Shown: piece after piece, positions 18,806-44,020 of the stretch | Numbering within the stretch: position 1 is the stretch's first letter | Layout of the letters: each line of letters starts with the position of its first letter | NCBI GenBank assembly: GCA_963734935.1 | Contig: CAVTIO010000009.1 | Coordinates: forward strand, 85,698-149,697 | Length of the DNA: 64,000 bases | Reading direction: 5' to 3' | Source of the DNA: an uncultured Chloroflexia bacterium | Lineage (GTDB): Bacteria > Chloroflexota > Limnocylindria > Limnocylindrales > CSP1-4 | Program-made: the position numbers and the translations under genes | Notes under the pieces: model-generated | What the model was told of the DNA's origin: nothing | What the model saw: only the letters and a program-made list of their open reading frames with translations | Databases searched by the model: none

Positions 18806-20380
18806 GTGATCGTCGGTGGCTCGGACCTGCGTGCGTCAAGTGCGCAGGCGGCGGAGCGACGGCTGACGCTGATCGCGTTGGCTGCCATTCTCGTGCTGGG
18901 CGCGGTGATCCGCCTGTGGAGCCTCGATGCCGTAGGCCTCAACAGCGATGAGGCCGTGTATTCGGGTCAGGCTGCCGCCCTCGCGGGCGATCCCATCTAC
19001 CGGGGGTTCTTCGCGATCTTCAGGGCGCACCCGCTGCTGGTGCAGTTCGCACTCGCCCTCGTGTACCAGCTCGGTGTCAACGACATAGCCGGCCGCCTCG
19101 TGAGCGTCGCCTTCGGTGTCGCTGCAATCCCATTGATGTACGCGCTCGGCAGCCTCATGTATGGGCGCAAGGCGGGAGTGATCGCGGCGGCCATCCTGGC
19201 GTTCATGCCTTACCACGTGATCGTGACCCGACAGGTCCTGCTCGATGGCCCCGAGACGACGCTGTGGCTCGCGACGATCTACGGGATCGCGCGCTACGCG
19301 GTGACGGCGCGACCGCGGTGGTTGTACGCGGCCGCGTTCGCCGGCGGGATGACCGTGCTGGCGAAGGAGACCGCGATTCTGGTCGTCGCGGTGGGCTTCG
19401 CCTTTGCGCTGATGACGCCGACTGTCCGGCTCACCCTGCGACGCATCGTGATCGCAAGTGCGGTGTTCGTGCTCGCGATCATTCCCTATCCAGCGGCGAT
19501 CCTGGTGGGCGGCGCGACGGGCACGGCGCAGCAGTACTTCGTGTGGCAGCTGCTACGGCGGCCGAACCACACGGGGACGTTCTACTTCGAGGTGCTCGGC
19601 GGCGCGATGGGCCTGGTGCTGCTGATCCTCGTGGCGCTCGGCGTGATCGCCGCCATCCGGCTTGCCACCTGGCAGGACCGGTTGCTGCTCGCGTGGCTGC
19701 TGGTGCCGTTCGCGTTCTTTGAGATCTGGCCGGTGAAGGGCTACCAGTATCTGCTGCCGATCGCCCCGGCCTGCGCGCTTCTCGCGACGCGGGCGCTCCA
19801 GGCGCCATGGTCCACGTGGCTCGCGCGATGGACAGGGCGACTCGATCTCGACGCGCGGCAGCTGTCAGGCGCGCGCGCCCTCGCCACGATCGCCGTGCCG
19901 TTGCTGCTGGTGGTCACGTTGGTGGTGCCATCCGTCAACGCTGTTTCGACAACCACCACGCAGGGTTCGCTGGCAGGCACCGGGGGCCTGCCCGGTGCGC
20001 GAGAAGCCGGCCTGTGGGTGCGGCAGAACGTGCCCGCCGGGTCGACATTCATGACCATCGGGCCGACGATGTCGAACATCATCGAGTTCTACGGCCAGCG
20101 AGAATCCCATGGGTTGAGCGTGAGCCCGAACCCGCTGCGCCGAAACCCCTCATACGACCCGATCATCAACCCTGATCGCTCGATCCAGACGCTGAAGCTC
20201 CACTACGCGGTCTGGGATATCTGGTCCTCATCGCGGTCCACGTTCTTCGCAGACATGCTCCAGCGCTACATCGACAAGTACCATGGGCGGCTCATTTACC
20301 AGCAGCATGCGATAGTGCGCGACGCAAACGGCAACCTGAGCGACCAGGTCGTGGCCGCCATCTACCAGCTCCAGCGATGA
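18806..20380 (+). CDS. GT-C fold glycosyltransferase, GT39/GT83 family (protein O-mannosyltransferase/ArnT-like)
   Basis: 524 aa polytopic membrane protein. First extracytoplasmic loop carries the DE motif ([10 protein letters not shown]), followed by ...[27 protein letters not shown]...LAKETAIL...; many TM helices and a soluble C-terminal domain. GTG start. Confidence 0.75.
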
Positions 20381-21762
20381 CGATGACATCCCGCATTCCG
20401 CATTCCCGAGCCACCGCCGTGGTGCTGGCGGCTGGGCTGCTCGCGGTGACCTTCACCGGCGCAGGCCCCGTGTCGAGTGTGGCCGCGGCGGGCCCTGACG
20501 CCGGCCACGAGCCGGCCACGCCGATTGAGCATCTCGTGGTCCTGATGCAGGAAAACCACACGTTCGACAACTACTTCGGCACGTACCCGGGTGCCGACAC
20601 CCCACCCAGCGACGTCTGCATGCCCCGGGACCCGACCGACCCGTCCCTGGGCTGCGTGGCGCCGTACCACCTCGACTCGCACCGGACGATTGACCTCAGC
20701 CACGGCCCGGAGGTCGCGAAGGCCGTCATCAACGACGGTGCGATGAACGGGTTCATCTCGGCGCAGAACAAGCGGAACCTGCCGGGCGAGGTCGCGATGG
20801 GCTACTACGACGGCAGTGACCTTCCCTTCTACTGGAACCTGGCCTCGACGTCCATCCTGGCCGATCGGTTCTTCAGCTCGGATGCGGGGGGTAGCCGCGA
20901 GAATCACATGTTCTGGGTGGCGGGCCAGGCCGGCAGCGCACAGGCTGCTCCTCCTGGCGGCTACCAGTTCGACACGATCTTCGACCGCCTCGAGGAGGCC
21001 GGCGTCTCCTGGCGCTTCTACGTGCAGAACTACGACTCGACGATCACCTACAGGACGCTCACGGGGGAGCCACAGGATTCCCAGACGATCTGGGTGCCCT
21101 TGCTCAACTTCGACCGCTTCATCGACGACCCTGCGCTGTCGTCGCACATCGTGGACGTGAGCCAGTACCACGAGGACCTGGCCGCCGGCACGCTTCCGGC
21201 CGTGTCGTACATCGTGCCGTCGGGCGCGAGCGAGCACCCGCCCGGTGACGTCACGATCGGGCAGGTGTACGGGGCGTCGCTCGTGACCGCGCTGATGCAG
21301 AGCAGCAGCTGGTCGAACAGCCTGTTCGTCCTGACCTGGGATGACTGGGGTGGCTGGTACGACCATGTCACCCCACCGCAGATCGATGTCGATGGACTTG
21401 GTCTGCGTGTTCCGGCCCTGTTCATGTCGCCGTACGCCCCACCTGGTCGCATCGACAGCACGGCCTATGACTTCACCTCGATCCTGCGGTTCATCGAGGA
21501 CAACTGGGGTATCGCCCCGCTCACGGCGCGGGACGCGACCGCCAGCAGCGTCGCGACGGAGCTGGACTTCCAGTCCCCGCCGAATGCAGCGGTGTTGCCG
21601 GGGTCCGTCTACCCGCCCGTTGAGAAGACCGACGGCGCAGCTCGGCTGCTGCTGTTCCTGATCTACGGCGTGATCTGCCTTGCCGTTCCGATCGGCGCGG
21701 TCGTGGTGTGGCGGCGGCGCCGGCCCCGCTCGCCCGTCGTGGAGCCGGGGGTCAGGGTCTGA
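20377..21762 (+). CDS. Phosphoesterase-family protein (PF04185; phospholipase C/acid phosphatase AcpA-like), secreted with C-terminal TM anchor
   Basis: [25 protein letters not shown] signature; signal peptide [13 protein letters not shown]; C-terminal [22 protein letters not shown]; ATGA overlap with the upstream gene. Confidence 0.75.
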
Positions 21763-23492
21763 TGGTCGCTTCGATCCAGCCGCGCGGCCCCGCCTTCGGT
21801 GGCGCTCGCGCGCAGCTGGCGCGCACGCTGGCTCCAGTGCTGATGCTGGTCCTCGCGGTGCTTGTCGCCCTGAGCACTGCGGCGCCCGCCCTGGCCGCCA
21901 AGAACACGACCGTCTCGATCAAGCTCAACGCGCCTCGTACCGCTCCGATCGGATCCGAGGTCTCGGTGACCGGGAAGATCCAGCGTGCCGATGGGAAGTC
22001 ACCTCGGGGCCTCCGGGTGGTCCTGTACATCGGCGGCCAGTACCTCGCGAGCGCACGAGCGGACGGAGCCGGTCGTATCCGCTTCACGATCCGCGGGGCG
22101 AACACGGAGGTCGCGCGTGACCTGCGCCTCCGCGCGGCTTTCGAGGGGGCAACCGGGATCTCGCCGAAGTCGGTCAGGAAGACGGTGACGATCCGGCCGG
22201 CCCACATCAGCGTGACCACAGTGCCCGCCGTCCCCGGCCTCCCGATCTCGATCGGCGATGTGGACAAGGTCACCGACGAGAGCGGTATGGTGACATTCGA
22301 CGTCGACCAGGTCGGCAACGTGAAGCTCGTTCCGCAGCTCGATGCCCAGGGCGATCCATTGACGCGGATCAGCTTCATCCGGTGGCAGGACAGCGTCTAC
22401 TCCCTCGCCCGGACGATCTCGGTGCGTGGCGACGCCGACTATGTGATCGGGCTCAGGGTTGCGTACCAGGGGAGCGTCGACTTCGCGGACCTCGACGGTC
22501 AGGCGGTGGACCCGTCGCTCATCGAAAGTGCGCGATTCACGTCATCCGGAGGCGGCGAGCTGAGCCTCACCAGCTTCGAGGACGTGTGGTGGGTGGCGGC
22601 CACCGCCGTGAGCCGGACTGGCGGCCTCCAGGAGTCGGACACCCTGTGGCGACTCGCCGAGGTCCAGATGTCCGGGGCGAACGTTGTCCACCGCGGCCAG
22701 CAGGCATACACCCCCACGCGCGGCGGCAAGTGGACCATCAACCTCCTGCTGTATGACCTTGCGATCAGAGCGAGTGACGCGGTCACCGGGGCAACCATCC
22801 ACGGGCCGGTGGTCCTGACCTACCCGGACGCCACCACGCAGACCGGCGAACCCGGTGACGATGGTCTGGTCAGGTTCAACGCGCTGCCGCGCGGGCAATA
22901 CACCGTCGTTGTCGACGTGGCTGGCGTGTCGCCCAAGACGCCGATCGCGCTGTCACGGTCGCAGGAAGCCGAGATCCGGATCATCTCCGCGCTGGATATC
23001 GCAGTCGCAGCCCTCCTCGCCGTGACGATCCCGATCCTGCTCTACGTCGTGGGTCGGGGCGTGCCCCGCGTCCAGGTCACTCGCCTCAAGGAGGCTGGTC
23101 GGCGCGGCGGTGCGCTGACCACCCAGGCGGGCGTGGCCGCTATGAGCCGGGGCCGAGCGGCGAGTGACGCCGTCAGGCGTGTCCCGTCCGACCTGACCAC
23201 GGTTGACCAGGGTCGCATGGCCGCAGCGCTCGAGTTTGCCGGGCTGATGGGCCGCCGATCATGGGCCGAGGCGCAATGGATCGTGGCGCGCCTCCGCTAT
23301 CGGGTCGCCGTCGCGCGCGGTCAACCCATGGACCCACCTGTGAAGCCGGTGGTCTCGCCCGCTCACGCCGCGACCTCCGGAGCGGGCGAGCCGACGCTTG
23401 AGTGCCCTCGATGCCATGGCCAGGTTCCGGAAGGTGCCTTGTTCTGCCGCACCTGCGGGCGCCTGCAGTCGAGCGCGCCCAAGGGTCGATGA
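21762..23492 (+). CDS. Hypothetical secreted/membrane protein with C-terminal zinc-ribbon (CxxC...CxxC)
   Basis: TGATG overlap with upstream stop; signal peptide LAPVLMLVLAVLVALSTAAPALAA; internal TM IAVAALLAVTIPILLYVVG; C-terminus ECPRCHGQVPEGALFCRTCGRL. The ORF-track start is a GTG at 21708 inside the upstream gene, so I prefer the ATG at 21762. Confidence 0.55.
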   Translation: MVASIQPRGPAFGGARAQLARTLAPVLMLVLAVLVALSTAAPALAAKNTTVSIKLNAPRTAPIGSEVSVTGKIQRADGKSPRGLRVVLYIGGQYLASARADGAGRIRFTIRGANTEVARDLRLRAAFEGATGISPKSVRKTVTIRPAHISVTTVPAVPGLPISIGDVDKVTDESGMVTFDVDQVGNVKLVPQLDAQGDPLTRISFIRWQDSVYSLARTISVRGDADYVIGLRVAYQGSVDFADLDGQAVDPSLIESARFTSSGGGELSLTSFEDVWWVAATAVSRTGGLQESDTLWRLAEVQMSGANVVHRGQQAYTPTRGGKWTINLLLYDLAIRASDAVTGATIHGPVVLTYPDATTQTGEPGDDGLVRFNALPRGQYTVVVDVAGVSPKTPIALSRSQEAEIRIISALDIAVAALLAVTIPILLYVVGRGVPRVQVTRLKEAGRRGGALTTQAGVAAMSRGRAASDAVRRVPSDLTTVDQGRMAAALEFAGLMGRRSWAEAQWIVARLRYRVAVARGQPMDPPVKPVVSPAHAATSGAGEPTLECPRCHGQVPEGALFCRTCGRLQSSAPKGR

Positions 23493-24718
23493 CCCTCCGC
23501 ACCGAGGGTTACCGGCAATCGATGCGACACAGCTCGATCGGTACCCGGGTGGTGCTGGTCGCGATGCTCGCCGCCGTGTGCTTCATCGGCGTCAGCCCCG
23601 GGGGTGTGGACGTCGTATCAGCCCGCCCGGCGGGCACGGCTGACGTCCTGTCGCGACACCAGGTCGCGGCGGGTGCCGCAACGAATCGGCCACTCGTGCT
23701 CGCCTACTACTACATCTGGTATCGAGAGGCCAGCTGGCAACGTGCCAAGACCGACCTCCCGGCGCTTGGACCGTACAGCTCCTCCGACCCTTCGGTGATC
23801 GCCCAGCACGTGGCCTGGGCGATGGCATCCGGCGTCGACGGCCTCATCGTCAGCTGGAAGCACGAGGCACGACTCGACGAGCCGCTGGAGCTCCTGGTCG
23901 ACGAGGCCACGGCCTCGGGGCTCAAGCTCGTCCTCCTGTACCAGGGCCTGGACTTCGATCGGCAGCCGCTGGATGTAGCCAAGGTCGAGGACGATCTCCA
24001 CTGGTTCCTCGATACATACGAGGCCTCGCCCGCGTTCGCGGCGTTCGGGCAGCCCACGGTCATCTGGTCTGGATCGTGGGGATACACGGACGCACAGATC
24101 GCGCGCGTGCGGGCGAGCATCGGCGCCCCGGAGCGCGTCCTGCTTCTCGGTTCGGAGAAGTCGGCCGCGGCGTACGCGTCCCGAGTCGACCTGTTCGACG
24201 GCGACGCGTACTACTGGTCATCACCTGACCCCCTGACCACGCCCCGCTACCAGCGCCGGCTCGACGAGCTGACCGCCGCAGTACGGGCCGACGCCGGACT
24301 GTGGATCGCACCCGCGGCTCCCGGCTTCGACGCCCGATTGGTGGGCGGGACCAACGTCGTCCCGCGGCGTGATGGGCAGACGTACCGGGCGGCATGGCAG
24401 GGTGCCCTCAACTCGAGCCCTGATGCCATCGGGATCATCAGCTGGAACGAGTTCAGTGAGAACTCACAGATCGAGCCGAGCCAGCTGTACGCGGACCAGT
24501 ACCTTGGGCTGACCGCCCAGCTGGTCTCGGAGCTGCCGGGCGGCGACCCCGCGGCACCGCCGCCCACGTTCGCGCCTGCTGAAACGGTTGCGCCGCGTGC
24601 GCCGGTCGCGCCGTCCAGCCCAACCGAGGGTGGCCTCGTCGCACTGCTCGCAGGTGCCGCCGCGATCCTGGTCCTCGTCGGCGTTGGCGCGGCGGCCCGT
24701 CGGAGGGTCGGCGAGTGA
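23489..24718 (+). CDS. GH99-like (endo-alpha-mannosidase-like) domain protein, secreted, C-terminal TM anchor
   Basis: LVLAYYYIWYREASW...LGPYSSSDPSVIAQHVAWAMASGVDGLIVSWKHE...GIISWNEFSENSQIE parallels the GH99 motifs YYxWYG, LGxYSSxDPSVI and SFNEWHEGTQIE. ATGA overlap with upstream stop; C-terminal LVALLAGAAAILVLVGVGAA. Confidence 0.6.
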   Translation: MTLRTEGYRQSMRHSSIGTRVVLVAMLAAVCFIGVSPGGVDVVSARPAGTADVLSRHQVAAGAATNRPLVLAYYYIWYREASWQRAKTDLPALGPYSSSDPSVIAQHVAWAMASGVDGLIVSWKHEARLDEPLELLVDEATASGLKLVLLYQGLDFDRQPLDVAKVEDDLHWFLDTYEASPAFAAFGQPTVIWSGSWGYTDAQIARVRASIGAPERVLLLGSEKSAAAYASRVDLFDGDAYYWSSPDPLTTPRYQRRLDELTAAVRADAGLWIAPAAPGFDARLVGGTNVVPRRDGQTYRAAWQGALNSSPDAIGIISWNEFSENSQIEPSQLYADQYLGLTAQLVSELPGGDPAAPPPTFAPAETVAPRAPVAPSSPTEGGLVALLAGAAAILVLVGVGAAARRRVGE

Positions 24719-32532: not shown

Positions 32533-32588
32533 CCGGGGCGCCGGTCGGGCCGGCGCCCGCGGGACCCCGGCCACCGGCGGGAGGCGTC

Positions 32589-35500
32589 CTATTGCCCGAC
32601 GACGATGGTCAGCGTGGGCGGCGTGGTCGTCTCGCGCGAGGCGAACACCTCCTGGCTGCCGCCCGTACCCTGAGCGACCGTGAGGACGTTGCCCTCCGCC
32701 GCCGCCACGAGGCTGGCGACGTCGGTGGACGTCACGACGCCCGGGCCGCAATGGGTGGCGGTGGTGTCGACGGCGGCGCCGACGGCCGGGCGACTGGCAT
32801 AGGTGATGGTCCCCTCGTCCCAGGCGGATCCATCGGTGTCATACACGGTGTAGCCGATGCCCGCGTTCTTGCTGCACTGGTAGGTCAGGGTGAGCGTGGC
32901 GGACTGCACCGCCCCCGCGACGTTCGAGAGATCGAACGCCATGTAGCTGTACCACGTTGACTGCCCTGATCCCTTGATGCGCAGGCCCGTGCTCGTCCCG
33001 TAGTTCGAGGTCGGGCTGTCGCTGGACACGTAGCTGTCCTGGATCGGGTTGAGCACGAAGGTCTGGCTCGCATCGGTAGTCACCTGGTTCGACGGGTCGC
33101 TGAGCGGCGAGTGGTTGCCCGCCGCGTCGAACGCGTCGACCGTGTAGCTGTGCGTGGAGCCCGGCGCCAGGCCGGTGTCCGTGAACGCCAGGGTCGCCCC
33201 GTCCACGGTCGCGACCGGGGTTGTGTCACTGTCACGGTAGACGTCGTAGCCGGTCACTCCGACGTCATCGGTCGAGGCACTCCACGACACGTCGATGATC
33301 GAGGAGCCATTGACCGTGGCCGTGACCGAGCCTGGCGCCGTTGGCGCCTGGCTGTCGCCACCGACCGTGATCGTGGTCGTCGCAGGCGTGCTGTCCCCGT
33401 ACAGGTTCGAGGCGACGAGGGACACCGTGTAGGGGCCGGCTGCGGCCCAGGCATGGCTGGGATTGGCTTGGGTGCTCGTCGACCCGTCCCCGAAGTCCCA
33501 CGCCCACGCCGTCGGGCTGCCACTGCTGGTGTCCGTGAACTGGACGGGCACGCCCACCGTCGGGCTCGTGGTCGAGGAGGTGAAGGACGCGGCGGGCGCG
33601 TCCGTCGCGCCCGTCCCGACGACGATGGTCAGCGTGGGCGGCGTGGTCGTCTCGCGCGAGGCGAACACCTCCTGGCTGCCGCCCGTACCCTGAGCGACCG
33701 TGAGGACGTTGCCCTCCGCCGCCGCCACGAGGCTGGCGACGTCGGTGGACGTCACGACGCCCGGGCCGCAATGGGTGGCGGTGGTGTCGACGGCGGCGCC
33801 GACGGCCGGGCGACTGGCATAGGTGATGGTCCCCTCGTCCCAGGCGGATCCATCGGTGTCATACACGGTGTAGCCGATGCCCGCGTTCTTGCTGCACTGG
33901 TAGGTCAGGGTGAGCGTGGCGGACTGCACCGCCCCCGCGACGTTCGAGAGATCGAACGCCATGTAGCTGTACCACGTTGACTGCCCTGATCCCTTGATGC
34001 GCAGGCCCGTGCTCGTCCCGTAGTTCGAGGTCGGGCTGTCGCTGGACACGTAGCTGTCCTGGATCGGGTTGAGCACGAAGGTCTGGCTCGCATCGGTAGT
34101 CACCTGGTTCGACGGGTCGCTGAGCGGCGAGTGGTTGCCCGCCGCGTCGAACGCGTCGACCGTGTAGCTGTGCGTGGAGCCCGGCGCCAGGCCGGTGTCC
34201 GTGAACGCCAGGGTCGCCCCGTCCACGGTCGCGACCGGGGTTGTGTCACTGTCACGGTAGACGTCGTAGCCGGTCACTCCGACGTCATCGGTCGAGGCAC
34301 TCCACGACACGTCGATGATCGAGGAGCCATTGACCGTGGCCGTGACCGAGCCTGGCGCCGTTGGCGCCTGGCTGTCGCCACCGACCGTGATCGTGGTCGT
34401 CGCAGGCGTGCTGTCCCCGTACAGGTTCGAGGCGACGAGGGACACCGTGTAGGGGCCGGCTGCGGCCCAGGCATGGCTGGGATTGGCTTGGGTGCTCGTC
34501 GACCCGTCCCCGAAGTCCCACGCCCACGCCGTCGGGCTGCCACTGCTGGTGTCCGTGAACTGGACGGGCACGCCCACCGTCGGGCTCGTGGTCGAGGAGG
34601 TGAAGGACGCGGCGGGCGCGTCCGTCGCGCCCGTCCCGACGACGATGGTCAGCGTGGGCGGCGTGGTCGTCTCGCGCGAGGCCAGGTTGATCGTGCCCGC
34701 ATAGCCGGTGAGGCCGAGGCTCAGCAGGCCACCCTGGGCAGGCGCGACCAGCGAGTCGACATCCGCCGACCCGTAGACACCCGACGTGAGCGGCCCGGAC
34801 GAGTTCACCACCGCGCCCATGTCAGGCGCGGTGTCGTAGACGATGGCGTACTCATCCCAAGTGGTGTCCGCGACCCCGGCCACGCCGAAGCCCTGCGAGC
34901 CCGTCGTCGTGTTCGACAGCACGCCGAGCGTAGCCGACTGGATCTGCCCGACCACGTTGGAGAGGTCGAACTTGAGGTAGCTCGCCGTCCCGCTCGAGTT
35001 GACGTACAGCGAGGTCGCTGTTCCGCGGTTGGTCGTCGGGATCGATGGGTTGACGTACGCGTCCGCGATGGGGGTCAGCACCAGGGTGACCGTGCCGCTG
35101 GGCGTCGTGGCGGACGCGGGCCCACCCGGCGGTGACCGGTTGCCGGCAGCATCGAAGGCCTCAACGGTGTAGCTGTGGTTGGAGCCGGGCGCCACGACCG
35201 TGTCCGCATACGCGAGCGTGTCCGGGTCAAGGGTCACGAGTGGTGTGGTGGCGTCGTCCTTGAACACCTCGTAGCCGGCGACGCCGACGTTATCGGTGGC
35301 GGCGTTCCAGGTGACGTCAATCTCACCCGGACCGTTGGCCGCTGCCGACACGGAGCCGGGCGCTTCGGGGGCGATGCTGTCCGCGGTTCCCTTGCAGGAA
35401 AGGAGGCCGCTGTCCTCCACCGACCCGGTCGGGGTCTGGAACGAGAAGGTCGCGCTGGTCGGGAACAGGTTCAGGCGGAGCGCCCCGAAGTTGGCGAAGT

Positions 35501-36963
35501 CAGCCGCCACCAGCCGGGAGTCCGTGACCACCTGCTCCTGGTGTCCGTGCCCCCCCGAGCCGACGATGATCTCGGTGATCCCATTCGGGTCCGGGTTCAG
35601 GTTGCCGTCGACAGGCTCGAACCGCTGGTAGTTGTGGTCGTGGCCGTTGAGCACCAGCGTCACGTTGTGCTGGGCGAGCAGAGACCAGATGGCCGACATC
35701 GAGGCTGTGGAGCCCTCAGGACCCGTGTTGAGCAACGGATGGTGGTAGTACACGACGGTGCACGGCGACGCGTTGGCGGCGAGATCGGCCATGAGCCACT
35801 TGTACTGACCGGAGTTGGTCGCCGTCTGACCGAACTGGCTGGTCGAGTTGAGCGCGATGAAGTGCCAGCCGCTTGCGTCGTAGCTGTAGTAGTCGGGGAT
35901 GTTGTCCCAATAGTAGAAGTACCCGGAGGCATCGTTGCCCGTGTACTCGTGGTTGCCGATCACCGGGTTGGTGATGCTTCGGAACTTGCCATACATGCCG
36001 GCCGTGCCGTCCGGCCCGTACCAGTTGTCGAACTCCGTGGGCAGCCCGTCTTCGTACACGTCGCCCAGGTACAGGAACAGGTTGGGGTTCCAGGTCCCGA
36101 TCAACCCGACTGTGCCGATCTCACCAGGTTCCCCACCGGCACCGTCGCCGGTCGCGGCGACCACGAACGGCGATCCCGGAGCGGGCGTCGTCCCCTGCGT
36201 GGGCACGAACTGGTTCGGGTTGGGCGGCGGTGTTTGGTAGCCGTTGGCGAAGGTCAGCGTGATGTTGGCGGCGGCGCTCTCCCAGTTGTCCCGCATGAGG
36301 GTGGTTGCGCCCAGCTCGTAGGTTCCATCACCGAACCGGGCGGTGTCGAGGGTGAACGTATAGGGCGAAGTGAAGTCCGTGATGAGCCGTGAGCCGTTGA
36401 GGGTGAAGTAGGCGCGGCGGATGCCGGGGCTGTTCGAGTCCTGAGTGACCTCCAGCGTCACGTCGGTTGTGCCCGTGAGCGTCGCGTTGTCGCCGGGCGC
36501 AGTGATGCACAGCGTCACGCTGTAGCCGCCAGGCCCGCTCGTGTTGCACGTCGCCGTCGGCGTGGGTGTGGGCGTGGGCGTGGGCGTGGGCGTGGGCGTC
36601 GGCGTGGGCGTGGGCGTCGCGGTGGCTGTCGCCGTCGGCGTGGGCGTCGGCGTCGGGCGTCGGCGTGGGCGTCGGCGTGGGCGTGGGCGTCGCGGTGGCT
36701 GTCGCCGTCGGCGTGGGCGTGGGCGTCGCGGTGGCTGTCGCCGTCGGCGTGGGCGTGGGCGTCGCGGTGGCTGTCGCCGTCGGCGTGGGCGTCGGCCGCT
36801 GGTGGCGTTTCGCGTCGACGACGGTCGCTCCCTGGGCGAGGATCCCAGAGGCCAGGATCACGACGCCGAGCACGGCGAGCAGGCGCGGGCCCCTACCGGA
36901 GGCAGGTGGGTTGGGGCGTCTGGGAGACCCGGTCGAGGAATGGCGCTTGACGACGTGGAACAT
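32589..36963 (-). CDS. Giant secreted surface protein: signal peptide, PT-repeat linker, metallophosphatase, FN3, DNRLRE domain, then (PKD-FN3-DNRLRE) x 2. Apparent +1 frameshift in the linker.
   Basis: An intact 1309-aa ORF (32589..36518) has metallophosphatase motifs GDVYEDG...GNHEY...GHDHNYQRF, FN3-like segments, DNRLRE-like ASYLKFDLSNV and PKD-like WAWDFGDGSTSTQANPSHAW. The same frame continues upstream as PTPTPT. The signal peptide MFHVVKRHSS...RLLAVLGVVILASGILAQGA and the TPTPTPTATATA repeats (ORF 36328..37242) are in another frame. A single extra G near 36655-36657 (cgtcGGGcgtcgg vs the cgtcggcg pattern) separates the two frames. Confidence 0.6.
32595..34682. repeat. Exact tandem duplication, 2 x 1020 bp (32595..33614 and 33615..34634) plus a 48-bp partial third copy
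   Basis: Identical secondary ORFs are offset by exactly 1020 bp (32885..33073 = 33905..34093; 33254..33523 = 34274..34543). Sequence comparison at the unit junctions confirms identity. It encodes a duplicated 340-aa PKD-FN3-DNRLRE module. Confidence 0.85.
36560..36795. repeat. 36-bp tandem repeats encoding (TPTPTPTATATA)n Pro/Thr/Ala linker
   Basis: Direct repeats of cgcggtggctgtcgccgtcggcgtgggcgtgggcgt on the plus strand. Confidence 0.7.
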
Positions 36964-37024
36964 GACGAGCCCCCAGTGCCTGTTCAGGTTCGCGGAGTCT
37001 GCCGGCTCATGCCGGTTGATCTTC

Positions 37025-38785
37025 TCATCCATCGCCCACCGTGCCCTCGACGTCCTGCGCATAGGCAACGGACAGGGCACTCGAAGTGGACATGGCACTC
37101 GCTGCACTGGACATCGGTGCGCCACCGGCGGCGAGCGGCGACGGTTGCGTTGCGGGCAGCGTATCTGGCAGGCCCGGGCCGACGGCAACCATTGGACCCA
37201 TCTCGGGCGTGCCGGGGCCCACGGCAACCAGCGGCGGCTCATCGATCAGGGCGGGCAGCCGGTCCGCCCAGCCGTGACCGGGCGTCCGCAGGTGCCAGCG
37301 CCTCGCGTTGGTGATTGCGGACCGCAGCAGCTCGGCCTCGCGCCGTCGGAGCTCCGGGTAGTCGAGACCGTCGATTCGAATCTTCGGCGCGAACAGTGCG
37401 AACGGCGGGAAGCCGTACGCATCGTCCGTGTTCTCGAGCAGAACATCGACGGCCTCGTCCAGGGAGACCTCGGCCTCGCGCTCCTCGCCACGCTCCATCA
37501 GCACGATGTTGCGGATCGGCGCGCGCTCGGCGACCGAGCACTCGAACAGGTCGTTGATCCGATGCTTGGGCGGCGGCACGACGAACTGGACGAGTGAGTT
37601 CACCGTCATGATCGGCAGGTTCCGATCGCCGAGCGCCCGTCCGACCTGGCGACCGGACTTGGAGTGCAGGCGGCTCTGGATTGCCAGCTTGGCCCGATCG
37701 CCCACCGTGAGACGGCCGTCCTTGGCGACACCCATCGTGTGGAACGAGAGTGTCATCGGCTTCGGGTAGCAGATCGCCACCCCGGCGGGGTCGATGATCG
37801 TCATGTCGTCCGAGAGGAACTGATAGCCACGGCGCCGGACAAGGGTGATGACCGTGCTCGTCTTGCCGGTATCAGTCTGTGCTGACAGCAGCGTGGCACC
37901 GTGCTCGCCGGCGAGCGCCGCGGAGTGGAGCAGCACATAGCCCCGCGAGACGAGCAGGAAGCGCAGGAACGCCTCGACGATGTTCGTGTACACGACGTGG
38001 GGCGAGATCGCCAGGATGGGGCTGACCTTGATCTCGATCGGGGTGCCCATGCGGAGCGAGAAGTTGGCGGCCACGGGGCCCAGGTGCTCCTGATAGACGA
38101 GCTCGTCGCCCTGCTCACGGAACGTCACCTTGGTGCGCAGTCCCTTGCCCACGAACCCGATCCGGATGCGGATGTCTGGCGATCGCCCCTCGGCCACTGC
38201 AAAGTGGCGCAGCTCGCGCAGCTCCACGTCGGATTCGATGGCCAGAATTCCGGCGAGGTCGTAGTGATGACGAGCCGCCTGCTCGCTAACGATCGGTCCA
38301 ACCCCCGCCGGCGCCGTACCGGCCAGGGCGGCCTCCTGCCGATTTCCCCACAGCAGCGTGTCGGCAACCAGGAGACGGAACAGGAACAGGACGACGAGGG
38401 AGATGGCGTTGGACAGGGCGTAGTGCAGGCCAAGTCCATCGGTCAGGCCCCAGAGCATCGGGACGCGAAGAACCAGGAGGCCGAAGTTCAGGCCCAGGAA
38501 GGCCAGGTATCGATTGGACCGAGACCCACGAACGCCGCGATCCGCGAACGCCCATGTGTCGGCCCAGAAGAAGTTCCAGGTCGAGGAGCCGACCGTCGCC
38601 AGCACCGCCGACACGAGGTAGTAGATCCCGAGCAGCTCGGTCGCCACGACCACGAGGATCTGATTGACCAGGAGGCCCGATAGCCCCACCAGGCCAAATC
38701 GCACCCAGCTCGCGATCCGTCCCCGCCCGGGGCCCAACGGCGCAAGCTCCGCCGCCTGTCCCACTTCTGCTGCTTCTGCTGCCAT
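37025..38785 (-). CDS. GtrA-like membrane domain fused to HprK-C-like P-loop (kinase-like) domain
   Basis: AGGAG-cgga-ATG at 38785. GtrA-like 4-TM region RFGLVGLSGLLVNQILVVVATELLGIYYLVSAVLATVGSSTWNFFWADTWAF. C-terminal region LLHSAALAGEHGATLLSAQTDTGKTSTVITLVRRRGYQFLSDDMTIID resembles the HPr kinase C-terminal P-loop (LlHgs...G.sGsGKSe.al.L...G..lvaDD). The extension to 38890 is Arg/Ala-rich and is preferred not to be coding. Confidence 0.6.
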   Translation of the reverse strand: MAAEAAEVGQAAELAPLGPGRGRIASWVRFGLVGLSGLLVNQILVVVATELLGIYYLVSAVLATVGSSTWNFFWADTWAFADRGVRGSRSNRYLAFLGLNFGLLVLRVPMLWGLTDGLGLHYALSNAISLVVLFLFRLLVADTLLWGNRQEAALAGTAPAGVGPIVSEQAARHHYDLAGILAIESDVELRELRHFAVAEGRSPDIRIRIGFVGKGLRTKVTFREQGDELVYQEHLGPVAANFSLRMGTPIEIKVSPILAISPHVVYTNIVEAFLRFLLVSRGYVLLHSAALAGEHGATLLSAQTDTGKTSTVITLVRRRGYQFLSDDMTIIDPAGVAICYPKPMTLSFHTMGVAKDGRLTVGDRAKLAIQSRLHSKSGRQVGRALGDRNLPIMTVNSLVQFVVPPPKHRINDLFECSVAERAPIRNIVLMERGEEREAEVSLDEAVDVLLENTDDAYGFPPFALFAPKIRIDGLDYPELRRREAELLRSAITNARRWHLRTPGHGWADRLPALIDEPPLVAVGPGTPEMGPMVAVGPGLPDTLPATQPSPLAAGGAPMSSAASAMSTSSALSVAYAQDVEGTVGDG

Positions 38786-38814
38786 TCCGCTCCTTCGCCG
38801 ACCGCTTCCGGGGC

Positions 38815-39609
38815 CTACTGCTGCAGCTTCGACTGCTCGATCTCTGGATCGTGGGGCGATCCGTCCCAGCGGCGTCGGAGCTCGTCCCATCGCAGTGCGA
38901 TGACCAGCACGAACGCTTCGATCACGATCCGGCGCGACATCTTCGAGGCGCCGAGGCGCCGATCGACGAACACGATCGGGACCTCCTGGATCCGGGCTCC
39001 AGCGCGGCTGGCTCGGTATGTCATCTCGATCTGGAACACGTACCCGCCGGCCCGCACCTCGCCACCGGTCAGTGCCGCCAGAGTGGTCGACCGCCAGGCC
39101 TTGAACCCGCCCGTCAGGTCGTGCGGCTGGAGGCCCAGCACGGTTCGGGCAAACAAGCTGCCTCCGCGGCTGATCACGCGCCGCGCCAGGCCCCAGTCCT
39201 CGACTCGTCCGCCGCGCGCATATCGCGACCCGAGCACGAGATCGGCGGCACCGGACTCGATGGGTGCAACGAGCCGTGGAAGGTCCTGGGGGTTGTGCGA
39301 GAAGTCGGCATCCATCTGAACGACGATGGTCGCGTTTGCATCGAGGGCGACCCTGAACCCGTGGCGATACGCCGGGCCGAGCCCTTCCTTCCGCGTGCGA
39401 TGCAGGACTCGAACGCGCGGGTCCTGCGCCGCGATCCCATCGGCTAGCTCACCCGTGCCATCCGGTGAGCCGTCGTCCACAACCAGCAGCGTCGCGCCAG
39501 GAAGCGCAGTCAGGATCGCCTCGGCAATGCGCGGAAGATTCTCGGCTTCGTTGTAGGTCGGCAGCACGACCCAAGTGCCGTCAGCTGCGGTGACCGCCGC
39601 CCTGTCCAT
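38815..39609 (-). CDS. Polyprenol-phosphate sugar synthase (GT2; Ppm1/GtrB/dolichol-phosphate mannosyltransferase-like)
   Basis: WVVLPTYNEAENLPRIAEAIL...LLVVDDGSPDGTGELA...VLHRTRKEGLGPAYRHGF...IVVQMDADFSHNP...GGFKAWR. A 29-nt gap separates it from the downstream GtrA-fusion gene on the same strand. Confidence 0.8.
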   Translation of the reverse strand: MDRAAVTAADGTWVVLPTYNEAENLPRIAEAILTALPGATLLVVDDGSPDGTGELADGIAAQDPRVRVLHRTRKEGLGPAYRHGFRVALDANATIVVQMDADFSHNPQDLPRLVAPIESGAADLVLGSRYARGGRVEDWGLARRVISRGGSLFARTVLGLQPHDLTGGFKAWRSTTLAALTGGEVRAGGYVFQIEMTYRASRAGARIQEVPIVFVDRRLGASKMSRRIVIEAFVLVIALRWDELRRRWDGSPHDPEIEQSKLQQ

Positions 39610-40438
39610 CGATCTCTGGTCCTCCCCTCAATGCGAGCACCCTGGACGGGTGTCGCCCCTTTGACCCCGGGCCCAGATCCCGATGCCGGGTACCTGAAGC
39701 CGCCGCCGGCCCTGCCGGCGTGCACCTGTACGTGAGCCGGCACCGCCTCCCGTTGCCCGGAGCCGGAATCACATCCGTGGGTAGCCGTCGGCTCGGAATG
39801 CCGGCCTCGCCGTGCCTTCCGTGTACCCCTCCCGGTCGATCCCGGTGTCGCCGATCGAACCAGCCCGCTGATGCCGGTCGCGCCCCTTTGGGCGCACATC
39901 CGTCGGGACGAATCCCGTGATAAGTGCCGGCTCCTCGCACCGAACGCCCTCCGCCCTCGGTGCTATGGAGACCCTGCTCGGACCTATGATTTGAGCCCCT
40001 GTCGGCGGATACCCGCCGGCCGACGCGCCCCGGAGTCTCATACCCCAAAGGTCCTGCGTCAAGGGGGGACTTATGGCAGGGTAGCGGGCCGCTCGGGTTG
40101 CGATGCGTGACCTCGCCTGGCCTCCCACGCGCCGGTTCTGGCCCATGTCTACGTTCACGGAGCGCATGGCAAGCACGACAGGACGCATCCTGGCGAAGTG
40201 ACTGTGGCAGGCACTGGACTAGATGGGAAGGTTGCGGGGTTTCAGCTCCGGGGGAGAAACCGTTGCCGCTGAGCACCATTGGACCGGTCCATGCGACCGT
40301 CGCCACCGCGTCTCAGCTCACGGTCGGCGTGACCCGCCCGGGGCCCATGTCGCGGTGGTTGACCATCGCCAGGATGGACTGACCTCTCCCGCCCGTGAGA
40401 CGATCGCCCTGGAACGGCATTGCAGGAGGAGGGTCAGG

Positions 40439-41440
40439 TTGGCAGCCACGGCCGCACCGGTTGGGCCTGCCGACGGCAGGCGGTTCTGGTCCGCCCTGCG
40501 GGCGGCGGTCGGGTCGGCCGTCGTGGTCGACGACGAGCCCCTCCGCCTCCTGGCGGTCGCGCTGCTGGCGCACGGCCACGCGCTGGTCGAAGATGTCCCG
40601 GGCGTCGGCAAGACGCTGCTGACCAGGGCGTTCAGCCGGGCCCTCGGGCTGACGTCGGCGCGCATCCAGGGCACGCCGGACGTGCTCCCGAGCGACATCC
40701 TCGGTTCGAGCCTGCTCGAGGCCGGTCGGTTTCGCTTTGTGCCCGGGCCGGTGTTCGCCAACATCCTGCTCGTCGACGAGATCAATCGGGCGACCCCGCG
40801 GACCCAGTCGGCGCTGCTCGAGGCGATGGAGGAGCAACAGGTCTCTATCGAGGGCGAGACGCGACCCCTGCCGGATCCGTTCCTGGTCCTTGCCACCCAG
40901 AACCCGATCGAGCTGGAGGGCACGTTCGCCCTCCCGGAGGCGCAGCTTGACCGGTTCCTCGTCAGGCTGCACCTCGGCTATCCGGACCGTGGTGAGGAGC
41001 GGCGCATCGCCAGCCGCTATCAGGCGTCGGCGGACCCGCTCGAGGCGGTGATGCCCGTGGCCGGGACGGAGACCGTGATCCAGATGCGCGAGCTGGTGCG
41101 CACCATCGCGGTCGCCGATCCGGTCGAGGAGTACGTCGTCGCGCTGACGCGGGCAACGCGCGAGCGGCCGGAGCTGCGCCTTGGCGCCAGCCCGCGCGCC
41201 AGCGTCGCGCTCTACCGTGCGGGCCAGGCGGCTGCCTTCCTGTCAGGGCGTGACTTCGTCCTGCCCGACGACGTGCAGTCGGTCGCGTCCGCCGTGCTCG
41301 GCCATCGAGTGCTGCTGGACTTCGATCGCGAGCTCCGCGGCATGACGACCGAGGCCGTCGTCGGCGATCTGCTCGCGACCGTCGAGGCGCCTCCGGCATC
41401 GGACCCGCAGCCCGCGGACGGAAGCCCGCCCGAGCGATGA
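40439..41440 (+). CDS. MoxR-family AAA+ ATPase
   Basis: GGAGGAGGG SD then TTG at 40439. LLAHGHALVEDVPGVGKTLLTRAFSRALGL...ANILLVDEINRATPRTQSALLEAMEEQQVS...FLVLATQNP. The longer ORF from 40223 has a non-homologous N-terminus. Confidence 0.8.
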   Translation: MAATAAPVGPADGRRFWSALRAAVGSAVVVDDEPLRLLAVALLAHGHALVEDVPGVGKTLLTRAFSRALGLTSARIQGTPDVLPSDILGSSLLEAGRFRFVPGPVFANILLVDEINRATPRTQSALLEAMEEQQVSIEGETRPLPDPFLVLATQNPIELEGTFALPEAQLDRFLVRLHLGYPDRGEERRIASRYQASADPLEAVMPVAGTETVIQMRELVRTIAVADPVEEYVVALTRATRERPELRLGASPRASVALYRAGQAAAFLSGRDFVLPDDVQSVASAVLGHRVLLDFDRELRGMTTEAVVGDLLATVEAPPASDPQPADGSPPER

Positions 41441-42666
41441 CGGGGATCGGCGCGGGCCTGCTGCTCATCGCGGCCGGCGCCGTCCTGGGCGCGGGGGGCC
41501 TTGTGGTGACCGGGGTCGTCGTCGGGCTCGTCTGGCTGCTGCGCGGGCTGTGGACACGGTTCGGCCTTCGGGCGCTCACCTACGAGCGTCAGCTCAGTGC
41601 CACGCGCACGGTTGTCGGCGACGACATCTCGCTGGAGCTGACCGTGCGCAACCGCAAGCTCCTGCCGATCCCGTGGCTGGCCGTCGACGACCTGCTCACC
41701 CGTCCGGCGACCGTGGCGGGCCATCACCTGGAGCCTGCCGACGTGCCCGGGTTCGGCTCCCTCCGCACCACCTGGACGGTCGGCTGGTTCGAGCGCGCGA
41801 CCCGCAAGCTGCGGATCGTCAGCGACCGGCGCGGCGTCTACGAGTTTCGCAGCGCACGTCTCCAGGTGGCCGACCTGTTTGCGCGGGAGCTCGTCAGCGA
41901 GGAGCGCGAGGCAACGGTTCGATACTGGGTCATCCCGCGAAGCGTGCCGGTCCGAACCTCCGCGGCCATGAGCCAGCTACCCGGCTCCGCGCGAGCACGG
42001 CGCGGCCTGTTCGAGGACCCGGCGCAGTACGCGGGGGTGCGCCCCTACCTCCCCGGGGACTCGTTGCGCCGGATCCACTGGAAGGCGACGGCCCGCCTCG
42101 GTCGGGCCGTGAGCCGTCGCCATGACCCGGGGCAGGAACGAGAGGTGGTGCTCGCGCTCGACGCCCAGACCATCCCCGGCCCCTTCTGGCAGATGCAGTA
42201 CGACGAGGAGCTGATCGAAGAGGTGTGCACCGCAGCGATGTCGCTCGCGCGCGCGACGATCGCTGACGGTGTCGCATGCGGCCTGGCCGCAAACGGCTAT
42301 TCGCTGGGGGGGCGGCGGGTGGTGCACCTGGCACCCAGCGCTGCGCCCGGCCAGGCGACACGCATCGCCGACGAGCTGGCCGCGCTGAGCCGGTGGGCGT
42401 CGATGCCGTTCGGAACGCTGCTCGGCCAGCTCGCTCGCCGCGTGCGGCCCGCCACGATCATCCTCGCCATCTCGACCCAGGCGCCGAACGCGTTCCTGCC
42501 GATCATGCGCCGCCTGTCGGCCTCGGGCCACCCGGTGCGGTTGTTGGCGCTCGGGCCCGAGGGCCCCGGCGCGATCGTATCCGCGCGTGCGATCGGGGTG
42601 CCGGCGGAGATCGCGCGGCTTGACCCTGACTGGAGGAGGGCCGATGCGCTCGACCTGGTCGGCTGA
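41437..42666 (+). CDS. DUF58-domain protein (MoxR-associated, vWA-like)
   Basis: ATGA overlap with the MoxR stop; N-terminal TM pair; YAGVRPYLPGDSLRRIHWKATARLG is the DUF58 hallmark. Confidence 0.7.
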   Translation: MTGIGAGLLLIAAGAVLGAGGLVVTGVVVGLVWLLRGLWTRFGLRALTYERQLSATRTVVGDDISLELTVRNRKLLPIPWLAVDDLLTRPATVAGHHLEPADVPGFGSLRTTWTVGWFERATRKLRIVSDRRGVYEFRSARLQVADLFARELVSEEREATVRYWVIPRSVPVRTSAAMSQLPGSARARRGLFEDPAQYAGVRPYLPGDSLRRIHWKATARLGRAVSRRHDPGQEREVVLALDAQTIPGPFWQMQYDEELIEEVCTAAMSLARATIADGVACGLAANGYSLGGRRVVHLAPSAAPGQATRIADELAALSRWASMPFGTLLGQLARRVRPATIILAISTQAPNAFLPIMRRLSASGHPVRLLALGPEGPGAIVSARAIGVPAEIARLDPDWRRADALDLVG

Positions 42667-44020
42667 CCGCGTGCTCCGCCTGCTGGCCACCGCCAGCCTG
42701 GAGGCGGCCTGGCTGACGCTCGCGTACCTGGTGCTCGAATGGCTGGCGGGTCGTGACCAGCTGGATCTCGGGATCGCGCAGCTTGGGGCGGCCGCGATCG
42801 TCGGGACGCTGCTCAGTCGTGCGCTGCACCGCCGGTCTCGATCCGCGTACGTGGGCGTGCTGCTCGGCGCCGCAGCGCTCGCGGGTGCGGTCGGGATCTG
42901 GCTGGCCGCCGCGCCCGCGTTGGCAGGCGCGGACAAGGCCGCGTCCCTCGTCGTCAACTCCGGAGGGTGGCTGCTGGGCGTCGCGGTCCTGCGCGGCAGC
43001 ACGCACGCGGACCTCGAAGGGGATGCAGGCCACGCCGAGCGCGTCCTGGACGCAGGCCTCATCGGGCTTGCGGCGTTCTGGATCTTCGCCAGTGCGTCGG
43101 GGCTGGCCACAACCGACCCGTTCGCCGTGACGGCATATGCGGCGACGCTGACCTTCGTGAGCGCGGGGCTCATCTCGCTGGGACTTGCCCGCCTGACCGA
43201 GCTGCGTGTTGAGGGCGTTGATCGGGCCGCCCGCTGGCGCTGGCTGATCCTGGTGGTCGCCGTCAGCGGCGCCGTGTTCGTGATCGGCGTTCCGCTCGCA
43301 GCTGTGCTCGGTGTCCCGGTCTCGGCGGCCCTGATCGGAGTCGCGGGACCGCTGGCCCCGGTGCTCTTCGTCATCGTCGCGCTGATCGCGATCCCCCTGG
43401 GCCTGATCGCCGAGCTGCTGCATCTCCTGCTCCCAGCCGCACCTGGTGCCCCGTTCCCGGACCTCGGTCCTGCGGCCAGCCCCGGGTTCGGACAGACACA
43501 GCCGGGTCAGGGAGCGGCCTCAGCGCCTGATGGCGGCTGGATGCTGTGGCCGCTGCTCGGTGGCCTGGCGGTGCTGCTCGCGATCGGGATCGGCATGCGG
43601 CTGCGTCGCCCGACGCTCGACGACGACCTCGTTGCGGAGGTGGAGATCCGCGAGTCCGAGCCGATCGGTGGCAGCCTGCTGATCGGAGGTCTGCCACGAC
43701 CGCGGATCCCATGGCGTCGTCCAGGTCGAACGGTGCCGCGCACCGCTCGGGACGCGTACCCGCTCGCGCTCACCCTCCTCGTCGGGCGCCCCGAGGAGCG
43801 GCGTGTGGGCGAGACCCCGCGCGATCACGCGCGCCGCGTCGCGTCCACGTCGCTCGGCCGCAGCGTCGGCCGGCTGGCCGTGGACTATCAGCTCATTGCC
43901 TTCGGGGGGCGTTCCGTGTCAGCGGCTGAGGAACGTCGTGCGCTGGAGCGATGGCGGCAGGTCGAACGTGCGAGTCGCAGGCCGCCGCCGGGCTCGGGGG
44001 ATCGGGACCGGTCGATCTGA
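42644..44020 (+). CDS. Membrane protein with C-terminal DUF4129-like domain (third gene of MoxR operon)
   Basis: GGAGGAGGG-ccg-ATG at 42644. Multiple TM helices. C-terminal RRPGRTVPRTARDAYPLALTLLVGRPEERRVGETPRDHARRVASTSLG...AEERRALERW matches the DUF4129 pattern. Confidence 0.55.
   Translation: MRSTWSADRVLRLLATASLEAAWLTLAYLVLEWLAGRDQLDLGIAQLGAAAIVGTLLSRALHRRSRSAYVGVLLGAAALAGAVGIWLAAAPALAGADKAASLVVNSGGWLLGVAVLRGSTHADLEGDAGHAERVLDAGLIGLAAFWIFASASGLATTDPFAVTAYAATLTFVSAGLISLGLARLTELRVEGVDRAARWRWLILVVAVSGAVFVIGVPLAAVLGVPVSAALIGVAGPLAPVLFVIVALIAIPLGLIAELLHLLLPAAPGAPFPDLGPAASPGFGQTQPGQGAASAPDGGWMLWPLLGGLAVLLAIGIGMRLRRPTLDDDLVAEVEIRESEPIGGSLLIGGLPRPRIPWRRPGRTVPRTARDAYPLALTLLVGRPEERRVGETPRDHARRVASTSLGRSVGRLAVDYQLIAFGGRSVSAAEERRALERWRQVERASRRPPPGSGDRDRSI

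Follow-up and report, generated by a model that had tools for sequence, protein, structure and literature searches.

A PEPCK/HprK-fold P-loop domain joined to the predicted membrane half of a split polyprenyl-phosphate hexose synthase in Chloroflexota and other phyla

We analysed a 64,000-nt stretch of DNA from an uncultured Chloroflexia bacterium (contig CAVTIO010000009.1 of assembly GCA_963734935.1, positions 85,698 to 149,697; hereafter the window; G+C content about 69%). An open reading frame (ORF) on its minus strand, 37025..38785(-), encodes a 586-aa protein that consists of a transmembrane (TM) domain, a linker, a P-loop domain resembling HPr kinase (HprK) and phosphoenolpyruvate carboxykinase (PEPCK), hereafter the C-domain, and a disordered tail, as judged from the ORF, Pfam matches, homologues and an AlphaFold2 model. 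From its sequence, the protein is predicted to be the membrane subunit of a split polyprenyl-phosphate hexose synthase resembling type-III dolichol-phosphate-mannose synthase (DPMS), with the family 2 glycosyltransferase (GT2) encoded immediately upstream as the catalytic part. The C-domain holds the intact catalytic constellation of a cytoplasmic PEPCK/HprK phosphotransferase, and it is associated exclusively with the pathway formed by GT2, TM and GT-C glycosyltransferase proteins and with secreted phosphoesterases. These results suggest an unrecognised phosphate-transfer step in cell-surface glycosylation, either carrier recharging or tailoring of the lipid-linked sugar.

The reading frame is uninterrupted over 37025..38890(-). 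Its ATG at 38785 yields the 586-aa protein and has a Shine-Dalgarno motif, GAAGGAG (38790..38796(-), by reading of the sequence), 4 nt upstream; this motif lies inside the 29-nt gap between the GT2 stop codon (38815-38817) and the start. An earlier start at 38890, which would give 621 aa, was rejected because it overlaps the GT2 gene, whereas the ATG at 38785 has a strong Shine-Dalgarno motif and agrees with public gene calls. Indeed, public assemblies already hold a 586-aa gene call that is 100% identical to our protein (P0001). The gene had first been picked out as an unusual fusion in an automated reading of the letters (the original prediction), and both peptide strings quoted there were found in the ORF. 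That reading had allowed that the fusion might be an artefact, with the two halves separate in relatives; the best 120 whole-protein homologues are all 530-630 aa long and cover both halves on one polypeptide. A frameshift or misassembly as the origin of the fusion was rejected, given that the ORF is continuous, that independent assemblies contain the identical protein and that over 100 homologue clusters are built alike.

The N-terminal half (aa 19-146, 38348..38731(-)) is a four-helix TM domain of the GtrA/DPMS type, as identified by Pfam, by alignment to the DPMS of P. furiosus (PfDPMS) and by AlphaFold2. The match to GtrA_DPMS_TM (PF04138) at aa 29-144 had an E-value of 5.6e-15 and 56 bits against a cut-off of 26.1, which bears out the family proposed originally. 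The model places the helices at residues 19-51, 56-79, 89-117 and 122-144, with predicted local distance difference test scores (pLDDT) above 90, and N41, Q42, N71, N126 and R137 are invariant in the homologue alignment. GtrA proteins are small stand-alone membrane proteins; the present protein has 586 aa and a 340-aa soluble domain. The sole solved sequence relative of this half was the TM domain of PfDPMS (chain positions 250-372, E 2.2e-8).

The upstream ORF (264 aa, 38815..39609(-)) is a GT2 enzyme with DADFSHNP and GSRY motifs (PF00535, E 1e-31). Its best solved relative was again PfDPMS, at positions 27-249 (E 3.9e-33), and NCBIfam matches to AglJ, PpgS and ArnC-like models were all below threshold. 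The synthase gene that had been noted beside the fusion is present, with a dolichol-phosphate-mannose synthase as its closest known structure. Since the GT2 protein aligns to positions 27-249 and the TM half to 250-372, the two adjacent genes reconstitute one PfDPMS-type enzyme. By this alignment, the gene break falls exactly at the junction of the catalytic and TM domains.

Type-III DPMS has been defined through sequence motifs in a 2026 paper, in which such TM motifs are absent from ordinary GtrA proteins, the type under its strict definition occurs only in hyperthermophilic archaea, and the TM domains are proposed to possibly translocate the product as well (PMC12992685). With chain positions of PfDPMS given as residue number plus 22, we found that the phosphate-binding residues Arg117 (in SRY), Arg131 and Ser135 are kept in the GT2 protein (GSRY, and the R and S of ARRVIS). 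The DADxQHPP motif corresponds to DADFSHNP, in which DAD, His and the last Pro are kept, with Q replaced by S and one P by N; Lys178 (in KIL) is lost, with Val aligned in its place (in GGYVFQ). In the TM pocket, Asn248, Asn277 and Arg341 correspond to N41, N71 and R137, each present in 56 of 56 homologues, and the gate residue Phe338 corresponds to F134 (42/56). Hence, since the PfDPMS TM motifs that ordinary GtrA proteins lack are kept, reading the TM half as part of a DPMS-like synthase fits better than reading it as a flippase that stands alone: of the flippase half proposed originally, the family assignment stands and the role changes.

Thus, as in PfDPMS (PDB 5MLZ, 5MM1 and 9EP0), a GT2 domain and a four-helix GtrA-like TM domain align end to end and share SRY, Arg131, Ser135, N248, N277, F338 and R341. 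Unlike PfDPMS, which as a type-III enzyme carries both on a single polypeptide, the domains here lie in two genes, in a bacterial host and with the substitutions at Lys178 and in DADxQHPP, and PfDPMS lacks the 340-aa P-loop domain. In Actinomycetota the parts are fused: the orthologues of Streptomyces cyaneus and Micromonospora yasonensis are single GT2-TM-C-domain proteins, and more than 100 such proteins (800-890 aa; Streptomyces, Micromonospora and related actinomycetes) carry no annotation beyond "glycosyltransferase". PfDPMS-type TM domains with the proposed translocation pocket are widespread in bacteria; the recent analysis confining type-III DPMS to hyperthermophilic archaea used a stricter definition, to which our protein does not fully conform.

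The C-domain (aa 173-514, 37244..38269(-)) is a cytoplasmic P-loop domain of the PEPCK/HprK fold. In an AlphaFold2 model built on 56 homologues (mean pLDDT 83, predicted TM-score 0.72), it is made up of a beta sub-domain at the N-terminus, the P-loop core and an inserted helical part, mostly with pLDDT above 90, and the linker (156-167) and the tail (525-586) are disordered. The four TM helices and positive-inside loops of the model and sequence put the C-domain on the cytoplasmic side, together with the GT2 protein and ATP. Foldseek searches of the PDB gave matches to ATP-dependent PEPCKs spanning some 400 columns (E about 6e-5) and to HprK/phosphorylase (HprK/P; E about 1e-2, target-normalised TM-score about 0.45). 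The resemblance to PEPCK spans 274 residues and includes the N-terminal sub-domain. These matches run counter to an unrelated fold lacking P-loop homology, the outcome under which the original assignment would have failed.

Family profiles gave a fainter signal. The sub-threshold matches of the protein itself were HprK_rel_A (E 1e-6, 28 bits against 200), FomB and HprK_rel_B. Among 30 diverse C-domains, HprK_rel_A matched 28, HprK_rel_B and ScmC 20 each, HPr(Ser) kinase 11 (best E 4.9e-6) and Pfam Hpr_kinase_C 8, with best E-values of 1.5e-9 to 4.9e-6 and with the scores shown far below the curated cut-offs. HprK_rel_A, HprK_rel_B and ScmC (TIGR04352, TIGR04355 and TIGR04249) reached 28-29 bits against 200; for TIGR00679, the best E-value was 4.9e-6, and similar E-values in the same search corresponded to about 29 bits against cut-offs of 200. 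PF07475 did not match our protein, and the best-scoring relative of our protein reached 23.5 bits against a cut-off of 33.3. PF27840 was considered as a dedicated family for the C-domain and rejected: it turned out to be the ScmC family and was flagged as weak on most relatives, with an unflagged match on a stand-alone archaeal member (P0400). The PEPCK family models had no match in the Pfam or NCBIfam scans. No match to the N-terminal domain of HprK turned up either, and the stretch ahead of the P-loop core aligns with PEPCK. When all PDB sequences were searched with a profile built from 30 diverse C-domains, neither HprK nor PEPCK appeared at E-values up to 10. Hence, kinship with HprK and PEPCK is visible solely through curated family hidden Markov models, hhalign and structure. 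The C-domain is a distinct, deeply diverged family of the PEPCK/HprK superfamily that fits no curated family.

The catalytic residues were aligned with those of E. coli PckA by hhalign of the family profile (E 1.4e-4, probability 52%, 74 columns). The Walker-A-like P-loop SAQTDTGKT (aa 301-309, 37859..37885(-)) aligns to GLSGTGKT, with K308 and T309 paired with K254 and T255. His287 in LLHSAA (37925..37927(-)) pairs with H232, Asp326-Asp327 in LSDDM (37805..37810(-)) with D268 and D269, and K342 (YPKP) with K288 (YAKT). All six residues (H287, K308, T309, D326, D327 and K342) are invariant in the 56 homologues; TDTGKT is the family signature, and xAxTDTGKTxT...F(L/I)SDD is retained in nearly all 50%-identity representatives that span the region. 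The C-domain thus has the overall fold of PEPCK with its P-loop, His, Asp-Asp and Lys288 set, as well as the catalytic C-terminal fold of HprK with the canonical order of His, Walker-A Lys-Ser/Thr and Asp-Asp. The HprK P-loop is GxSGxGKS; that of the C-domain is AxTDTGKT. The HprK-C-like assignment of the original prediction was therefore correct at the superfamily level, although the loop, AQTDTGKT with a single Gly, is not glycine-rich as it had been described.

Further invariant motifs of the C-domain are PKPMTxSxHT, SRLHSKxGR, PPPK and NTDDAYGFPPF, and the domain is the best-conserved part of the protein across phyla (46-72% identity, versus 33-56% for the TM domain). The likeness of NTDDAYGFPPF to the PckA motif LTADAFGVLPPV was not used as evidence; hhalign left the two unaligned and their secondary-structure context appears different. 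Some members (P0239 and P0254) have lost the P-loop, with for example STRPSEGTTG or TGRTAAFRT where others have SAQTDTGKT, together with the Asp-Asp pair, and have kept the rest; these may be inactive paralogues. The tail that follows the C-domain (aa 515-586, 37028..37243(-)) is of low complexity and disordered (pLDDT below 50), and its repeated (V/P)VGPG motifs have counterparts at this position in close homologues (consensus VPVGP...PV).

With the C-domain alone as query, we found 1187 representative clusters (50% identity) at E < 1e-3, including 141 at E < 1e-30, and a scan of one genome per species confirmed it in at least 553 genomes. The best 80 species loci include Chloroflexota (Limnocylindria), Dormibacterota and Actinomycetota (Streptomyces, Micromonospora, Blastococcus, Oryzobacter and Jatrophihabitans). 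A stand-alone C-domain of about 352 aa, annotated "hypothetical protein", is frequent in Nitrososphaeraceae and Bathyarchaeia. Architectures were counted among the best 150 representatives, with only complete C-domains tested for four domain types. The domain stood alone in 30 of these proteins and occurred as GtrA-Cdom in 21, as GT2-GtrA-Cdom in 19, as GT2-Cdom lacking a TM domain in 9, as GtrA-Cdom-PMT_2 in 3, and once each as GT2-GtrA-Cdom-PMT_2 (1310 aa), Cdom-PMT, Cdom-GtrA and GT2-Cdom-GtrA. No fusion partners other than GT2, the GtrA-type TM domain and PMT_2 (a GT-C family) were found among the representatives, all of which were tested for the four domain types and ten additionally scanned against all of Pfam. 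Because GT2-Cdom proteins lacking the TM domain, permuted forms and stand-alone forms exist, the C-domain follows the synthase and its pathway rather than the TM domain.

Gene neighbourhoods corroborate this association. They were sampled in the best 80 species loci. GtrA lies directly upstream of the C-domain in 72/80, and a GT2 gene lies upstream on the same strand in 45/70, the denominator counting loci of sufficient length. PMT_2 follows immediately downstream in 37/68 and lies anywhere within 10 kb of the C-domain in 56/68; a PF04185 phosphoesterase occurs within 6 kb downstream in 33/57. A conserved secreted protein that has no family assignment, here called hyp594, is present in 43/57, after PMT_2 and PF04185 and at stereotyped offsets; it had no Pfam or PDB sequence match and is an as yet unnamed part of the system's core. 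The recurrent operon comprises GT2, TM-Cdom, PMT_2, a secreted PF04185 phosphoesterase and this unnamed protein. In some Chloroflexia, hyp594 is fused to the C-terminus of PMT (L001/L008, 13510-17100).

The operons of Streptomyces actuosus and Micromonospora harpali run GT2-TM-Cdom, PMT, PF04185, an unnamed or GH99-like protein and further secreted proteins, which are GH99/GH71 and Metallophos proteins in the former species and CBM96/NosD in the latter, and the first several genes of both operons overlap or abut. One distant lineage has LPG_synthase_TM, GT2, a stand-alone Cdom, PMT and PF04185 in this order, so that the TM partner is swapped and the remaining order unchanged. On a Nitrososphaeraceae contig, one of three archaeal contexts, the stand-alone C-domain has as neighbours a GT2+GtrA_DPMS_TM gene and a small gene for a Metallophos protein. 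The neighbours throughout were GT2, PMT_2, PF04185, GH99 and Metallophos genes, and no neighbourhood of lasso peptides or other peptides made on ribosomes and altered after translation (RiPPs) was found around the C-domain. Together, the fusions and the synteny with GT2 and GT-C genes strongly back the original proposal of a new component of an extracytoplasmic glycosylation system.

Two further observations concern a Nitrososphaerota contig (L090). A gene for a VTT/DedA-family membrane protein (13181-13816(-)) lies about 2 kb from the stand-alone C-domain gene, which is a single case, and a Polysacc_synt-like gene lies directly downstream of the C-domain gene. The VTT/DedA family is linked to polyprenyl-phosphate recycling.

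We infer that the C-domain works at the cytoplasmic membrane surface near the GT2 active site, where, with ATP as donor, it would add phosphate to a hydroxyl group of a lipid-linked intermediate of the pathway. For the substrate we tentatively favour the carrier polyprenol, as a possibility that falls somewhat short of an even chance. The C-domain would then phosphorylate free polyprenol to polyprenyl phosphate and pass it directly to the synthase, and the polyprenyl-phosphate hexose would cross the membrane, possibly via the TM domain itself. A GT-C enzyme would move the sugar onto extracytoplasmic acceptors, for which the many secreted enzymes of the cluster with Pro/Thr linkers are candidates. 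Outside, the secreted PF04185 phosphoesterase may act on phosphate, for example by turning spent carrier into neutral polyprenol, so that dephosphorylation, return and rephosphorylation would close the cycle. Polyprenol is favoured because the product of such a kinase is the acceptor of the fused synthase, because a kinase inside and an AcpA/PLC-type phosphoesterase outside fit a phosphate cycle, and because, in the scheme that a review gives for protein O-mannosylation in actinobacteria, a polyprenol kinase opens the pathway, ahead of the GT-2 and GT-39 enzymes (PMC12757957).

Several points weigh against polyprenol as the substrate. HprK itself phosphorylates a protein, HPr, and not lipids. 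Because the GT-C reaction frees polyprenyl phosphate, recycling does not strictly require a kinase. PF04185 genes lie near the C-domain in 33-38 of 57 loci, not in all, and about 15 kb away in the window; and the other archaeal contexts are looser than that of the Nitrososphaeraceae contig. In addition, the HprK-like kinases of lasso-peptide precursors phosphorylate peptides, not lipids (PMC8498205).

The fusion and synteny evidence is shared by a kinase for the lipid-linked sugar, which would phosphorylate the hexose of polyprenyl-phosphate hexose at the cytoplasmic face between synthase and translocation. Such an enzyme would take the position of ArnD in ArnC/ArnD/ArnEF/ArnT, and secreted PF04185 or Metallophos enzymes would later remove or remodel the phosphate. 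The window GT2 resembles ArnC (E 1e-10), PMT_2 is the GT-C family of the ArnT type, the clusters repeatedly contain phosphoesterases from two families, and the extra invariant polar motifs (PKPMT, SRLHSKxGR, PPPK and NTDDAYGFPPF) suit a defined polar head-group. However, the data fit the carrier as substrate equally well, and we know of no phosphorylated polyprenyl-phosphate-hexose donor for a PMT_2-type enzyme; we consider this alternative unlikely. The same invariant motifs, many of them beyond the nucleotide site, speak against a regulatory HprK-like protein kinase/phosphorylase acting on Ser/Thr of the GT2 or another pathway protein, as do the high conservation of the C-domain relative to the TM domain, the resemblance over 274 residues to PEPCK, a small-molecule enzyme, and the unmatched HprK N-terminal regulatory domain. 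A regulator of this kind, which may sense ATP, phosphate or pyrophosphate and match the supply of lipid-sugar to phosphate or energy status, is in our judgement distinctly unlikely, even though kinases fused to their own targets are common, the clusters are rich in secreted phosphoesterases, as would fit a phosphate-related regulon, and the nearest named relatives are protein or peptide Ser kinases (HprK/P, lasso-peptide HprK-related kinases and ScmC; PMC8498205).

Other chemistry between phosphates of the carrier, such as conversion of new polyprenyl diphosphate to polyprenyl phosphate with transfer to ADP or phosphate, would also yield what the fused synthase consumes. HprK/P uses phosphate and pyrophosphate; such a reaction would mirror its pyrophosphate-forming phosphorylase activity, the superfamily handles such chemistry, and our protein weakly matches FomB, a kinase of a phosphonate monophosphate. 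The argument is purely by analogy and the FomB match weak (E 6e-4 to 2e-3), which makes this reading very unlikely. The original prediction had also suggested that ATP might be coupled to flipping, that is, that nucleotide binding or hydrolysis by the C-domain drives or gates translocation of the lipid-linked sugar through the GtrA-type TM domain. PEPCK/HprK-fold proteins are phosphotransferases and not motor ATPases. In favour of coupling are the fusion of C-domain and GtrA in 72/80 loci and the translocation proposed for the PfDPMS-type TM domain; dolichol-phosphate-mannose translocation has, however, been described as energy-independent (PMC12992685). We found no specific support for the coupling, and GT2-Cdom proteins lacking the TM domain, permuted forms (Cdom-GtrA and GT2-Cdom-GtrA), an unrelated TM partner and stand-alone forms leave it extremely unlikely.

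Returning to the carrier as substrate, its most far-reaching version is that the C-domain represents a new class of lipid-carrier kinase with the HprK/PEPCK fold, membrane-tethered, found in Bacteria and Archaea, and forming a self-contained carrier cycle with PF04185. Polyprenyl phosphate would be regenerated at the synthase, and the neutral polyprenol that returns would be rephosphorylated inside. This we regard as somewhat unlikely; if true, it would give an alternative answer to how the carrier lipid is returned and recharged.

The system resembles known pathways in its other parts. In GtrB/GtrA/Gtr-type and ArnC/ArnEF/ArnT systems, a GT2 synthase is likewise combined with a small membrane protein of the GtrA type and with a GT-C transferase, and the genes for the three components are adjacent in most relatives of our protein. 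Mycobacterial PpgS/Rv3632/Rv3779 is another three-component polyprenyl-phosphate glycosylation system. The known systems differ in having no HprK/PEPCK-like domain and no conserved PF04185 and hyp594 partners. HPr kinase/phosphorylase and the HprK-like peptide kinases differ from the C-domain, which falls below every curated cut-off, has AxTDTGKT instead of GxSGxGKS, lacks an HprK N-terminal domain match and an HPr or RiPP context, and at about 340 aa includes extra N-terminal beta and helical parts. ATP-dependent PEPCKs (E. coli PckA and T. cruzi PEPCK) differ in that no PEPCK family model matches the C-domain; PckA is about 200 residues longer, its oxaloacetate- and PEP-binding residues were not identified in the C-domain, and the gene context of the C-domain is one of glycosylation rather than gluconeogenesis. 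The known polyprenol kinases are embedded in the membrane as integral proteins and have unrelated folds, whereas the C-domain, if it is a polyprenol kinase, would be a soluble P-loop enzyme tethered to the membrane. DgkA-type undecaprenol kinase and CTP-dependent dolichol kinase are its functional analogues only on condition that the favoured mechanism holds; they would then be alike in the proposed reaction and in its place in the pathway, the supply of polyprenyl phosphate to a GT2 synthase (PMC12757957).

Public names for these proteins are "GtrA family protein", "glycosyltransferase", "dolichol-phosphate mannosyltransferase" and "hypothetical protein", and none refers to the C-domain. A literature search on combinations of GtrA, HprK or P-loop kinase with polyprenol or glycosyltransferase, and on PF27840, found nothing. 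The type of pathway is known; what appears to be undescribed is the kinase-like module built into it, together with PF04185 and hyp594 as conserved partners. Polyprenyl-phosphate-sugar pathways are usually described as needing no ATP beyond nucleotide-sugar synthesis, and here a kinase-type domain, apparently catalytically intact by its residues, is hard-wired to the synthase. Besides Chloroflexota and Dormibacterota, its range takes in culturable Actinomycetota (Streptomyces and Micromonospora) and, as a stand-alone protein, Nitrososphaeria, and some proteins unite all four functions on one 1310-aa chain. The finding bears on open questions of carrier-lipid supply and recycling.

In the window, the gene set is split between the strands. 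On the plus strand lie PMT_2 (GT-C; 18806..20380(+), by Pfam and synteny), the secreted PF04185 phosphoesterase of the AcpA/PLC family (20377..21762(+); Pfam E 1e-73, PDB matches to AcpA and PLC, and a signal peptide), hyp594 (21708..23492(+), by synteny) and a secreted GH99/GH71-like protein that is a frequent cluster member (23402..24718(+), by Pfam and synteny), followed by more GH99, Metallophos and PF04185 genes. The minus strand carries GT2, the TM-Cdom gene and, directly downstream of it, a gene for a large secreted Big_7/Metallophos/fn3/PKD/CBM96 protein (32589..36963(-)), homologues of which follow the TM-Cdom gene in relatives. A signal peptide or an anchor is present in all secreted-type neighbours in the window, and Pro/Thr/Ser linkers occur in several. 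The two convergent blocks, 18806-31911(+) and 31999-39609(-), together hold three GH99-like genes, Metallophos genes, two PF04185 copies and many Pro/Thr/Ser linkers; their secreted enzymes are possibly substrates of the GT-C enzyme, or else a phosphate-scavenging or phosphoglycan-processing set. Beyond GT2, 40223-47374(+) encodes a MoxR-type AAA ATPase, a DUF58-like protein and a membrane protein, as read from translations only, and further on a GT4 glycogen-synthase-like protein and a GlgE-like maltosyltransferase; these appear unrelated to the finding.

The signal peptide and a Pro/Thr (PT) repeat of the large downstream protein (MFHVVKRH...PTPTPTATATATPTPTP) lie in a different frame from its 1309-aa ORF (GTG at 36518), which is itself preceded by more PT repeats. 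There thus appears to be a frameshift within 36514-36963(-); it sits in a PT-coding repeat with an 18-nt period (36514-36843), and the change of frame may reflect either faulty assembly or a tract genuinely prone to slippage. Within the same 1309-aa Metallophos/fn3/PKD/CBM96 gene, 32595-34682 is a perfect tandem duplication with a period of 1020 bp (1068 nt 100% identical) that copies a 340-aa PKD-fn3-CBM96 module exactly, and it is either a very recent event or an assembly artefact.

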